DNA from: an uncultured Chloroflexia bacterium
GTDB lineage: Bacteria; Chloroflexota; Chloroflexia; Thermomicrobiales; UBA6265
Reading direction: 5' to 3'
NCBI GenBank assembly: GCA_963737985.1
Contig: CAVTUU010000001.1
Coordinates: 130,414-194,413 of the forward strand
DNA: 64,000 nt
Position numbers and translations under genes: made by a program
Part shown: piece after piece, positions 13,369 to 18,968 of the stretch
How positions within the stretch are numbered: the stretch's first letter is position 1
Layout: each line of letters starts with the position of its first letter
The notes under the pieces: generated by a model
Seen by the model: the letters and a program-made list of their open reading frames with translations, nothing else
The model's database searches: none
What the model was told of the DNA's origin: nothing

Positions 13369-14520
13369 CTAATCGAGATAACCCCTTAGCTTGCGACTAT
13401 AGGTGGGGTGCCTCAATTTTCGCAGCGCTTTTGCCTCAATTTGTCGAATCCGCTCGCGCGTGATTCCGAACTCGCGACCGACCTCTTCGAGCGTCCGGAA
13501 ACGACCATCGTCGAGCCCGAACCGCAATACGATGATCTTTCGCTCGCGCTCTGTCAATTTGTTGAGCGCGTCGCTTATTTGTGACTTCAATAATTGCTGA
13601 GAAGCAAGCTCGATCGGCTGAGGCATCGTCTCGTCTTCAATGAAGTCACCGAGAAATGCGTCGCCGTCTTGCCCGACAGGAGCTTCGAGCGAAACGGGAT
13701 GTCGAGAAACATCCAGGACTTGTCGGACCTTATCATCCGAAATATCCATTGCCCGGGCGATTTCTTCTTGTGTTGGTTCCCGCTCGAGAATCTGTTGCAA
13801 GCGATGACCGGTCTTTTTGACCCGGTTAATCGTTTCGCCCACGTGAACTGGTAATCGAATGGTGCGGCTTTGGTCAGAGATCGCGCGAGTGATTGCTTGA
13901 CGAATCCACCAGGTGGCATAAGTGCTGAACTTGTAGCCGCGTGTGTAATCGAACTTATCGGTGGCTTTCATAAGGCCGATGTTGCCCTCCTGAATCAGGT
14001 CCAGGAAAGACAATCCGCGGCCGACATACTTCTTCGCAACCGAAACGACCAATCGCAAATTGGCCTGAATGAGGTGGGCGCGCGCTCGATCGCCATCCAG
14101 TTGATCGGCGAGCAATTCTTCGCGTTCGTCTCGGGTCAAATCAATGATTTGGAGTCTGTGCTCGCCGACTTTTCCTCGCTCCATCCGCTTGGCGAGCCAA
14201 ACTTCTTCTTGCATCGTAAGGAGATCTGTTTCACCGATCTCTTGGAGGTAGAGCCGCACAGAGTCGCTGACCCCGACTGAGAGCGCATCTGCAGCTTCTG
14301 CACGGTCGACCGGCGGCAATTCCTTCAATTTGATTGGATATTTGGCCGGTGCTTGATCGACGACGTCGATCCCTTCGGCAACGAGGGAGGAATAAAACTC
14401 ATCAAGTCCATCAACGTTTTCTTCCGCGTTTGGGAAGAGCGCGATGATGTCATCAGAAAGAAGGAAACCCTGGTCTTTACCTTTGGCAATGAGGCTCGTC
14501 ACCATAGAACGCTTCACCAC
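13369..14520 (-). CDS. RpoD-family (sigma70 group 1/2) RNA polymerase sigma factor
   Basis: Region 1.1-like N-terminus, [57 protein letters not shown]. Start may be ATG 14505. Confidence 0.95.
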
Positions 14521-14573
14521 CTCACGTACTGAGCGCAGCCGTTGGAGCGATGAGAGGGAGACGGGCGCGCGGC

Positions 14574-14605
14574 AAACAAAACCCCCACCCTGCAGCTCGG
14601 TGGGG
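14574..14605 (-). terminator. Intrinsic-terminator-like hairpin inside the sigma factor 5' leader
   Basis: Minus strand CCCCACC-(9 nt)-GGTGGGG, then G-TTTTGTTT; lies between promoter and CDS. Confidence 0.65.
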
Positions 14606-14622
14606 ACCGTCGATCGGGTTTC

Positions 14623-14658
14623 CTAATTTGGAGGAACGCGGGTTCCGCGGGCTGTCAT
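14623..14658 (-). CDS. Putative 11-aa leader peptide MTARGTRVPPN
   Basis: GAGGGG immediately before TC-ATG; TAG lies 17 nt before the terminator stem. Confidence 0.4.
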   Translation of the reverse strand: MTARGTRVPPN

Positions 14659-14700
14659 GACCCCTCGCCAATTGCATGCGATTGCGGTATTCGTGCCTGG

Positions 14701-14729
14701 AGTCTAGCGTAGGTTTAAAGACTTTTCAA
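14701..14729 (-). promoter_or_regulatory. Sigma70-type promoter for the sigma factor gene
   Basis: TTGAAA-N17-TAGACT. Confidence 0.7.
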
Positions 14730-16408: not shown

Positions 16409-16810
16409 CTAATGACCAAGCACCCAAACCGAATTGAGGCGGGAGTGCCACTTCAATTCAGTCTTCCCGAAATGAGACATCAGTCTGACTGCCTCATCAC
16501 GCAACAATCGCAAATGTGGCTTTTTGATCTTCCAAACCCCGTTGACTTGGTTGATGACGAGCATGCTATCGCCGTGAATCGTAACGCTCACTTCCTTTGA
16601 GTGGTCGTTCACGAGTTCGAGCAGCCTTTCAAGGGCCTTAAGGAGGGTCATGTACTCAGCTTCATTGTTCGTAATCTGCTCGCCCTGTTCGCTAAAACTC
16701 AATCTATCTCGTATGCAGAGGTCCCCTGGTCCACTGATTTCAAAGCTTCCATATCCTTGGCCAGGGTTTCCGATAGCGCCTCCGTCAAACACGATCGAAT
16801 ACTCTGTCAC
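16409..16810 (-). CDS. Ribonuclease HI family protein
   Basis: FDGGAIGNPG, TNNEAEY, GDSMLVINQVNGVWKIK; GTG start after AGGAG. Confidence 0.88.
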   Translation of the reverse strand: MTEYSIVFDGGAIGNPGQGYGSFEISGPGDLCIRDRLSFSEQGEQITNNEAEYMTLLKALERLLELVNDHSKEVSVTIHGDSMLVINQVNGVWKIKKPHLRLLRDEAVRLMSHFGKTELKWHSRLNSVWVLGH

Positions 16811-16883
16811 TAAGTGCTCCTGTTGAACGTAAAGCGAGTGACGGCCAAATGCCGCCACTCGCTCCAAGGTTTGCAGTCGATCT

Positions 16884-18968
16884 TTAAACGTGGGCGGCTT
16901 CGTGCTGCTTGACAGCCTCTGCCTTAATCTGCTCCGCAATGTGGGCGGGCACTTGCTGATAATGCGAGAACTCAGTGGTAAACGAGCCGCGACCTTGCGT
17001 TATCGATCGCAAATCGGTTGCATACCGTTGAACTTCGGCGGCTGGTACTGACGCTTCAATCGTTGTCATTTCATTGCTGCCTTGGTTCATGCCGCTCACG
17101 TGAGCACGCTTCCCGTTGAGATCTCCCATGACGTCTCCGGTGTTGCCCTCGGGGACTGTTACTCGCAACGTCAAAATCGGTTCGAGCAGCACCGGTTTTG
17201 CTTGAAGCACGCCCTTCTTGATTGCTTCTTTCGAGGCAATCTTGAATGCCATCTCATTCGAATCGACGTCATGATAGCTCCCGTCGGTCAAGGTTACTCT
17301 CATATTGACAATCGGATAGCCCGCGAGTGGGCCGCCATCAAGCGCTTCCCTCACGCCCTTTTCCACAGCGGGAAAAAAGTTCTTCGGGACCGATCCTCCG
17401 ACAACCTTCACACCGAACTCAAAATCTGAGTCCTGGAGCGGTTCGAGCTCCAGGAAAACGTGACCGTACTGCCCGGCGCCGCCCGTCTGTTTCTTATGCT
17501 TGTATTCGGCCAGCGTCTTCGCCGTGATTGTTTCGCGATAGGCAACGCGAGGCAGTCCTATATCAACGTTCACGCCAAAGCGACGAGTCATCCGATCGAG
17601 CGCGATTTGAACATGCGGTTCGCCAAGACCGGCGAGAATCGTTTCGCCAGTCACCGGATCGCGACTTAAGTGAAGGGAGGGATCCTCTTCTGAAAGACGC
17701 GCCAGGGCTTGTCCCATCTTGTCGAGGTCGGCTTTGGTCCTTGGGCTAACGGCTGCCGCATACGAAGAAGGAGGAAACTGAATATCTGGAAGGACGAAGT
17801 TCTTCCCTTCATCCGTCAATGTGTCGGACGTGGTCGTGATCGCGAGTTTGCCGACTGCTCCGATGTCTCCAGCGGTAACCGTATCAGTCGGCAAATGTTC
17901 TTTTCCACGAATGTAAAAGAGTTGACCGGAGCGTTCTGGTTTGCCTTTGGAGGCGTTAAAAACTGTTGAGTTTGACTTGAACGTACCTGACACAACGCGG
18001 AAATATGAGACTCGACCGACATGCGGGTCCGCAAGCGTTTTGAATACGAATGCCGCAAGTGGACCGTTTTCAATTGCTGCGAGTTGGGTCTCGTCGCCGT
18101 TTGAGCGCGCATCGAACGTCCTGCTCGCCGCTGAAGGTAAATAATCAATGATTGCATCAAGCAGTGGCTGAATTCCTCGATTGCTCGTCGCTGCTCCGCA
18201 CAGAACAGGAATGACAAGACCGGCTTCGACGCAGTGCTCGAGTCCGGCAACGAGTTCTTCAGTGGTGATCACATCGTCTTCAAGGTAGCGAACCATCAAG
18301 TCTTCGTCTTGTTCCGCGATGGCCTCGACGAGCTGGAGACGAAACTGCCGGCACTGTTCTTGAAGCTCTGTCGGGATCGGTCCAGATTCGAAGCCGCCGT
18401 CGCGATTTTCATGGAACGAGTGCGCAGTTTCAGAGAGTAAATCAACAATGCCACTGAATGTCTTTTCGCTGCCAATCGGAAACTGAATTGGAGCGACAGC
18501 CTTTCCAAATGTCGAGCGCGCTGATTCCAATGCCTTGGCAAAATCAGCGTTCTCTCGATCCATTTTATTGATGAAGATAAGGCGAGGAATTCCTTGCTCT
18601 TCGGCGAGCCTCCAGGCTTGTTCCGTCCCGACTTCGACTCCAGCGGAAGCATCCATCAGAATGATCGCGGCGTCTGAAGCGCTGAGCGCCGATTTCACTT
18701 CTCCCAAAAAGTCGGCGTAGCCAGGAGCATCAAGGACGTTGATTTTTGTGTCGCGCCATTCTACCGGTGCGACCGCAGTGCTGACTGAAATGTGTCGTTT
18801 GGTCTCGTCGGGGTCAAAGTCACAGACCGTGTTGCCGTCTTCGACACGGCCCAGTCGCGTAATGGCTTTGGTGTCAAACAAAAGGGCTTCGGCAAGCGAC
18901 GTCTTCCCGGCGCCGCCGTGCGAAAAGAGCCCAACGTTGCGAATCCGATCGGCAGGGTACTGCTTCAC
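16884..18968 (-). CDS. fusA: Elongation factor G paralogue (EF-G2 type)
   Basis: Full five-domain EF-G (YRETI, KKQTGGAGQYG, DGSYHDVDS, LRSITQGRG) with divergent G motifs (SHGGAGKTS, RHISV); not in an rpsL-rpsG-tuf operon. Confidence 0.92.
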   Translation of the reverse strand: MKQYPADRIRNVGLFSHGGAGKTSLAEALLFDTKAITRLGRVEDGNTVCDFDPDETKRHISVSTAVAPVEWRDTKINVLDAPGYADFLGEVKSALSASDAAIILMDASAGVEVGTEQAWRLAEEQGIPRLIFINKMDRENADFAKALESARSTFGKAVAPIQFPIGSEKTFSGIVDLLSETAHSFHENRDGGFESGPIPTELQEQCRQFRLQLVEAIAEQDEDLMVRYLEDDVITTEELVAGLEHCVEAGLVIPVLCGAATSNRGIQPLLDAIIDYLPSAASRTFDARSNGDETQLAAIENGPLAAFVFKTLADPHVGRVSYFRVVSGTFKSNSTVFNASKGKPERSGQLFYIRGKEHLPTDTVTAGDIGAVGKLAITTTSDTLTDEGKNFVLPDIQFPPSSYAAAVSPRTKADLDKMGQALARLSEEDPSLHLSRDPVTGETILAGLGEPHVQIALDRMTRRFGVNVDIGLPRVAYRETITAKTLAEYKHKKQTGGAGQYGHVFLELEPLQDSDFEFGVKVVGGSVPKNFFPAVEKGVREALDGGPLAGYPIVNMRVTLTDGSYHDVDSNEMAFKIASKEAIKKGVLQAKPVLLEPILTLRVTVPEGNTGDVMGDLNGKRAHVSGMNQGSNEMTTIEASVPAAEVQRYATDLRSITQGRGSFTTEFSHYQQVPAHIAEQIKAEAVKQHEAAHV

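Follow-up and report, generated by a model that had tools for sequence, protein, structure and literature searches.

The RpoD-like sigma-70 gene in the window described here (the whole stretch of DNA analysed, 64,000 nucleotides in length) is preceded by a leader in which a promoter is followed by a short upstream open reading frame (uORF) and an intrinsic terminator. Comparison with orthologous loci confirms that this uORF-plus-terminator leader in front of an RpoD paralogue is conserved across the family of the source genome, and the leader is apparently a real attenuator that has not been described before. It may well work by a ribosome-polymerase race of the pyrBI kind, in which a ribosome finishing the uORF would block the terminator and a pause at a Pro-Pro motif would let the hairpin fire, a reading that we hold at roughly even chances. 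Throughout, 'family' refers to the family of the source genome (Chloroflexota) and 'order' to its order, probably Thermomicrobiales.

Features of the leader

The first-pass annotation had placed a promoter, the Shine-Dalgarno (SD) sequence GAGGGG, the uORF MTARGTRVPPN*, a GC hairpin and a U-rich tail on the minus strand, and all of them were found there when the sequence was re-read (Table 1). The stem begins 17 nt past the uORF stop and 53 nt past the uORF ATG. The leader is counted as real because it is conserved; the signals in the window alone did not rise above chance, as two promoter-like sites were found with 1.5 expected, a strict terminator scan of the window did not call the leader hairpin, and the fold of the whole leader (z = +1.29, window alone) showed no excess stability. 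Rfam gave no relevant match in the window or in five related leader loci, T-box controls being detected alongside, and a riboswitch or known non-coding RNA was rejected on that ground.

Two short, mutually exclusive hairpins, also reported by the annotation, are indeed there (-5.5 and -3.0 kcal/mol). Neither reaches the terminator; being weak, away from it and lost in L002, a relative of the same genus, they were rejected as a switch. The stem at GCGCA...TGCGC is the minimum-energy fold in 39 of 93 family leaders but not in the window leader; it is kept in many genera, some of which have lost uORF and terminator. A pseudoknot over the sigma ribosome-binding site was dropped by eye, as this motif reads as one nested stem.

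Table 1. Positions of the leader parts, the sigma gene and the second leader (window coordinates unless marked otherwise)
Feature	Position	Strand	Basis or detail
Sigma-70-type promoter TTGAAA-N17-TAGACT	14701..14729	minus	TTGAAA 14729-14724, 17 nt, TAGACT 14706-14701
Transcription start, estimated	near 14694	minus	from promoter position
uORF Shine-Dalgarno GAGGGG	14661..14666	minus	SD and start enrichment in relatives
uORF MTARGTRVPPN*, 11 codons	14623..14658	minus	frame control and codon variation in relatives
R-V-P-P at uORF codons 7-10	14640-14629	minus	translation
C-rich CCCGC in uORF	+8..+12	minus	nucleotide-level conservation
Intrinsic terminator hairpin CCCCACC/GGTGGGG	14583..14605	minus	-13.5 kcal/mol; arm covariation
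Interrupted U-tract GTTTTGTTT, then G	14573..14582 (tail 14582-14574)	minus	fits elemental-pause consensus G-10, Y-1, G+1
GCGCA...TGCGC element, just upstream of sigma ribosome-binding site, partly conserved	14527..14570	minus	alignment view
Ribosome-binding site of sigma gene GAGGTGGTG	14513..14523	minus	sequence
RpoD-like sigma-70 paralogue, 378 aa, regions 1.1, 1.2, 2, 3, 4	13369..14505	minus	TIGR02393, Pfam
Second leader, before 91-aa SWIM-type protein	L252:190-690 (G000:C4, about 297590-298090)		promoter, SD, 11-codon uORF, terminator

Sigma gene and neighborhood

The protein encoded downstream scores above the TIGR02393 cut-off and matches the Pfam models for regions 1.1-4, by which it is classified as an RpoD-like (group 1/2) sigma-70 factor. 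The annotation was right to read such a gene after the hairpin, but its start is ATG 14505, from which the orthologues align, not the first GTG at 14520. A further RpoD-like sigma factor of the same genome (G000:C9:628352-629092) is 65% identical over 242 aa, and because regions 2.4 and 4.2 are nearly identical in the two proteins, the paralogue should read similar promoters. The nearest Atlas clusters of the sigma protein are mostly from Chloroflexota; a GTDB pattern scan returned generic RpoD loci only and no close orthologues.

The divergent neighbor of the sigma gene is yebC in 75 of the 91 family loci with enough upstream sequence (e.g., L003:571-1170), the identity of the yebC family having been confirmed on one locus; in the source genome a D-Ala-D-Ala carboxypeptidase gene precedes the sigma gene instead. 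YebC proteins reportedly aid the translation of polyproline. A link between yebC adjacency and the RxPP motif described below was discarded, no association being found (28/32 with RxPP, 47/59 without). Just upstream in the window lie an EF-G-family gene (PRK12740 type, 16884-18968) and an RNase H-like gene (16409-16939), co-directional with the carboxypeptidase and sigma genes, with lepA and rpsT-like ORFs nearby. At locus L133 (G061:C285), an internal TAG in the sigma match is accompanied by a degraded leader terminator.

Conservation

Orthologues of the sigma gene were found in 95 of 108 family genomes. The leaders compared were those of 93 family orthologues, together with 17 from four other families of the order. 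A promoter match is present in all 93 family leaders, with TTGAAA in 74 (the site of L022 was assigned by hand). In an automatic test, 61 of the 93 carried both an SD with start codon and a terminator, bearing out the layout that had been read in front of an RpoD-family sigma factor; 12 carried a terminator with a weak SD or none, seven an SD and start alone, and 13 neither. Ten of the 12 still hold an ATG in register, and the 13 retain promoter and sigma gene.

For detailed comparison, 66 of the 93 leaders, all with an evident terminator, were picked by hand, and every count out of 66 is conditional on this choice. Two of them stem from genomes flagged as unpublished (G011 and G083); excluding these, the spacing result given below stands at 64/64, the number of RxPP leaders at 28 and that of genera at 22. 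The terminator arms pair better with their own partners than with those of other genera in 23 of 23 genera, and the pair types of the upper stem vary across leaders. An SD with start codon 38-62 nt before the stem was found in 56/66 leaders, compared with 5/66 and 4/66 in two control windows. In 58/66 the first in-frame stop comes 0-18 nt ahead of the stem and closes a frame of 9 codons or more, compared with 12/66 and 5/66 in the other frames. The alignment of orthologous upstream regions, a check that the annotation had proposed, thus finds uORF and terminator conserved, and the PP codons in two clades.

The other four families of the order are mostly without the uORF-terminator unit. In leaders of sigma homologues from two families elsewhere in the class (six leaders, L234-L239), a promoter is joined by two hairpins, the first small and with arms that covary, the second carrying a pyrimidine tail and TTGCC; an SD-ATG is not conserved there, and the leader of L234 gave no match in Rfam. 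In family f2 (L026-L028, L183, L185), a conserved ATGAAGA lies a few bases past the predicted transcription start and is followed by a hairpin, and the GGGGTGCCAC motif of L026 and L027 recurs in L234; this ATGAAGA/GGGGTGCCAC feature is possibly a leaderless uORF or an RNA motif. Genus g4 (L146, L152-L154, L159, L164) retains ATG, stop and terminator but hardly any SD, and its uORF holds an invariant hairpin of 6-7 bp with a varying loop.

Leader peptide

On a tree of the sigma proteins (109 rows, quick IQ-TREE), the types of leader peptide largely follow clades. The peptide of the window's clade reads MxxRxxR[V/I]PPN*. In a second clade it reads MPARTGR[Y/H]PP and its tail varies freely, and in a third (31 rows) the peptides are short and unrelated, with no PP at codons 9-10. 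R/H-x-P-P occupies codons 7-10 in 30/66 terminator leaders and 11/23 genera, with synonymous change. Among 32 RxPP leaders, Arg7 is written with all four CGN codons, Pro9 with three codons and Pro10 with all four CCN codons; codon 11 varies freely in the second RxPP clade. This combination of synonymous variation and a free codon 11 shows, on comparative grounds, that R/H-x-P-P is under protein-level selection in two clades.

Such selection, and the presence of EF-P in the source genome, speak for a part of the role that the annotation had assigned to Pro-Pro, but not for a general one, as no PP occurs within the first 15 codons of 36/66 terminator leaders. Because R/H-x-P-P is found in only 30 leaders and PP is absent from these 36, EF-P sensing cannot, on these counts, be the family-wide signal. 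The annotation had named PPN as the motif; Asn follows PP in only 10 of the 32 RxPP leaders, and judged by the alignment the motif is better described as R/H-x-P-P, in a RAPP-type register equal to that of the RxPP/HxPP stalling motifs (PMC10951233). The residue x is V, I, Y or H, and A once (H-A-P-P). In mutagenesis of ApdA and ApdP, V/I/Y/H are reported as mostly non-permissive for arrest at this position, V being intermediate in one host (PMC12992588), which makes a modest, probably EF-P-sensitive pause at R-x-P-P more likely than a hard arrest.

At codons 3-4, CCCGC is kept at the nucleotide level in 27/30 RxPP leaders, and in one clade codons 2-6 hardly vary, third positions included. The uORF ends in Pro-stop in 7/66 terminator leaders (e.g., L008, L018, L114, L137, L162), an ending that could act as another kind of pause by slowing termination, and several other uORFs carry Cys at codons 3-5.

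Stop-to-stem spacing and polymerase pause

In all 66 leaders the uORF stop lies within 18 nt of the stem or beyond the stem (within 12 nt in 46), and in eight the ORF runs into or past the stem. Ordinary gene-end terminators of the source genome peak at 20-28 nt past the stop, with 22/117 at 18 nt or less and 8/117 at 12 nt or less; as near as the 17-18 nt of the window's clade are 11/54 to 22/117 of them. In 20-kb pieces of seven other family genomes, 5/20 terminators lie within 18 nt and 1/20 within 12 nt, and for the terminators at the 3' ends of the sigma genes themselves the distance is 19-36 nt in all nine cases found (30 loci). In five amino-acid attenuators of E. coli the distance is 24-64 nt, and pyrL passes through its terminator.

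Gene-end terminators (G000 genome-wide; L192-L231) also avoid the first ~14 nt after the stop codon. Such avoidance is a prediction of coupled transcription-translation (PMC7858274), and the stop-to-stem distances suggest that the two processes are tightly coupled in this lineage. In E. coli, the ribosome is reported to repress a terminator a few bases past the stop, with efficiencies between 0.12 and 0.8 at 17-18 nt, while amino-acid attenuators keep more than 20 nt; terminators within 100 nt of the beginning of a coding region are reported to function unless the ribosome is coupled through a pause (PMC4824070). The window's clade, at 17-18 nt, is at the limit of the range in which the ribosome blocks. 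With Pro9 in its P site, a ribosome would correspond to an equivalent distance of 17-26 nt, an ordinary permissive geometry. Over 21 genera, ORF length tracks the ATG-to-stem distance, the stop staying close (permutation, p = 0.009 for the spread and 0.043 for the maximum, the genera not being independent).

The elemental-pause consensus (G-10, Y-1, G+1; PMC12288461) is matched at the U-tract in 52/66 leaders versus 18/92 gene-end terminators of the source genome, a match partly due to the G-rich 3' arm. A conserved pause hairpin inside the uORF was rejected, as it beat synonymous randomization in only 1/23 genera.

Second leader of the same design

Scans of the genome turned up a single further leader that combines promoter, SD-start and terminator (Table 1). 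In the source genome its strong terminator lies 2-4 nt past the uORF stop. The 91-aa protein encoded downstream has no Pfam match, falls into Atlas SWIM clusters and has homologues in 57/61 family genomes. The best 30 loci, two of which are supplied by the unpublished genomes G011 and G083, all carry a terminator, and 24 carry an SD with start codon 27-50 nt before the stem, compared with 10, 1 and 10 of 30 in control windows. Peptide and frame are free, the ORF enters the stem in 20/24, mostly reading through the hairpin, and only the terminator covaries. This layout is that of pyrL, and it supports the view that occlusion may be a device of the family.

Comparison with known leaders

Pyrimidine operons are the main known case of a ribosome occluding a terminator directly, with no antiterminator involved; the EF-P version is known from an engineered reporter. 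As in the leader described here, the leader ORF of pyrBI in E. coli (pyrL) lies at or over an intrinsic terminator; there the hairpin is blocked directly by a closely coupled ribosome, and this coupling depends on a pause of the polymerase (PMC4824070, PMC5021804). pyrL runs through the hairpin with 44 codons and senses UTP (PMC4824070), whereas the ORFs described here have 9-16 codons, mostly stop 0-18 nt before the stem, carry R/H-x-P-P in two clades and precede a sigma factor. By its spacing, the terminator would again be within reach of the ribosome, borderline in the window's clade, for which the case is weakened because 17-18 nt is at that edge.

In an engineered polyproline-pyrL reporter, a Pro-Pro stall upstream of the terminator raises termination without EF-P (Elgamal et al. 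2016, PMC5021804), and in rsxC a terminator lies 16 nt after a PPE motif (PMC5021804). The former is artificial and the latter internal to an ORF, whereas the leader described here would be dedicated, conserved and natural. Other leaders that couple a short uORF with proline codons to downstream transcription are mgtL and mgtP (PMC5021804, PMC12856214); their stall favors readthrough via RNA refolding or a block of Rho, whereas here an intrinsic terminator lies within predicted ribosome reach. In the RAPP-type peptides ApdA, ApdP and CruR, the Arg (once His here) stands at the same place relative to Pro-Pro, two residues ahead of it (PMC10951233, PMC12992588), but x is V/I/Y/H here, not A/G, the peptide has 10-16 residues, and there is no secretion or metal-sensing domain. 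As none of the Arg forms is R-[A/G]-P-P and H-A-P-P occurs once, the resemblance is one of working only. CruR, moreover, acts through Rho (PMC9426467), unlike the intrinsic terminator here.

The whiB7/wblC leaders of Actinobacteria likewise combine a uORF of variable sequence with an intrinsic terminator before a transcription regulator (PMC10274678), but they have an antiterminator and are induced by stalling; here none was found in tests of low power, and the spacing favors the opposite sign. In the duf1127-1 uORF of Sinorhizobium meliloti, C-rich early codons can pair with the uORF's own ribosome-binding site, as here, and that leader is proposed to monitor ribosome availability; it is Rho-dependent (PMC12218461), whereas the terminator here is intrinsic. 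Classic amino-acid attenuators (trp, his, thr, leu, phe) differ from the present leaders in their spacing of more than 20 nt (18 nt or less in 66/66 here) and in carrying a run of codons for the amino acid that their operon makes; the peptides here differ between clades and the downstream gene encodes a sigma factor. The literature covered, with subscription papers largely outside it, held nothing on this leader or on leader-peptide control of an RpoD paralogue in Chloroflexota, and the main text of a genome-wide attenuator survey (PMC2965389) has no mention of sigma, rpoD or Chloroflexi.

Proposed mechanism and alternatives

In the proposed race, a ribosome would load on the strong uORF SD and keep pace with RNA polymerase, which, judging from the consensus, would pause at the end of the U-tract and give the ribosome time. 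On reaching the end of the uORF, the ribosome would occlude the hairpin and transcription would enter the sigma gene; if it lagged or paused, the hairpin would form and transcription would terminate. In two clades, a pause at R-x-P-P would hold the ribosome just outside the blocking range and act as a brake, and the output there would depend on EF-P, YebC or Pro-tRNA. A signal could act on either runner, through faster ribosomes or through a polymerase slowed at low NTPs. We infer from the geometry that readthrough would occur when translation keeps up and not when it is stalled, opposite to classic attenuators.

The race is preferred because the stop-to-stem distance is unusually short compared with ordinary gene ends and E. 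coli attenuators, because a ribosome held at Pro9 would give the permissive geometry of an ordinary terminator, and because in the engineered pyrL construct the polyproline stall led to more termination if EF-P was lacking (PMC5021804). It is favored further by the tracking of ATG-to-stem distance by ORF length, by the enrichment of the pause consensus at leader U-tracts, by the ORF of the second leader running into its stem, and by the ATG kept in register in most terminator leaders without a strong SD. Any pause may be weak, since x is mostly non-permissive in ApdA/ApdP. More tentatively, the family may have a general race leader, with a promoter, a strong SD and start fixed 35-60 nt before a pause-bearing terminator and no antiterminator, to which two clades would have added the R-x-P-P brake; the result would be a natural sensor with the sigma factor switched on by EF-P/YebC activity, the reverse of the sign known from proline leaders. 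This wider proposal is possible, though we regard it as doubtful.

An attenuator of classic sign (whiB7 or trp type), in which a stalled or non-initiating ribosome would leave a strand, for which the G-rich SD region is the most plausible candidate, free to pair with the C-rich 5' arm of the terminator, is in our view rather unlikely. It would make the sigma factor inducible by translation stress, which is plausible for ribosome stress and has its precedent in whiB7 (PMC10274678), and it agrees with the fixed place of PP at codons 9-10, compared with a stop that may fall anywhere from codon 11 to past the stem. Several folds in which the ribosome is masked at codon 9 also show SD-region:arm pairings, the 90 nt upstream pair with the arm slightly above shuffles in the RxPP clades (8/11 genera, p = 0.08), and the terminator is lost at equilibrium at some ribosome position in 12/66 leaders. 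The 5' arm, however, covaries with no upstream segment, and the SD region prefers its own arm no more than the arms of the genome's other terminators (median percentile 0.44); the upstream arm pairing amounts to -2 to -3 kcal/mol, versus -8.7 to -9.5 for the valS T-box antiterminators of the family, and a ribosome at Pro9 would have only about 7-16 nt between itself and the stem. Folding of the leader with a ribosome footprint, as the annotation had proposed, left the terminator at a probability >0.9 at every non-overlapping ribosome position in 44/66 leaders, the window leader included. No antiterminator was found by ribosome-mask folding, own-versus-cross duplexes or shuffles, tests of low power according to their controls: of five E. 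coli amino-acid attenuators, the equilibrium test picked up a switch clearly in pheL alone and partly in thrL, and the valS T-box of the family (16/30 loci used) escaped both the own-versus-cross and the shuffle test. In the valS leaders themselves (L297-L321), a T-box with terminator was seen in 16/30, and none in g4, g12, g14 and g24 with the pattern used.

The freedom of the peptide outside two clades, the interrupted U-tract, the 13 leaders that keep promoter and gene without either element, and the lack of the unit in most other families of the order would all suit a simpler arrangement, an unregulated dampener or small dual-purpose transcript in which a strong promoter yields a short coding RNA, a leaky terminator passes a fixed fraction on to the sigma gene, and the uORF merely stabilizes the RNA or sets the basal leak. 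We think this unlikely, as protein-level selection on R-x-P-P, selection on the stop position and the spacing are hard to explain without a kinetic role. Improbable, finally, is a trans-acting decision, by an antitermination protein or by Rho on C-rich uORF codons, with the ribosome gating a short RNA element. Rho is present in the source genome, CCCGC is conserved as nucleotides and can base-pair with the SD in the manner of the DUF1127 leader (PMC12218461), the near-invariant codons 2-6 of one clade fit, and sister-order homologues have structured leaders with no conserved SD-ATG; but with a covarying intrinsic terminator and its U-tract there is no need for Rho, the C-rich element is absent from the PP-free clade, and the pairing of SD and uORF does not covary.

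Significance

Leader-peptide control of an RpoD-like sigma factor, if true, would mean that the state of translation resets transcription globally in a little-studied phylum. The natural variants with and without Pro-Pro, together with the second leader, form a test set for how the distance and speed of a ribosome cancel a terminator.
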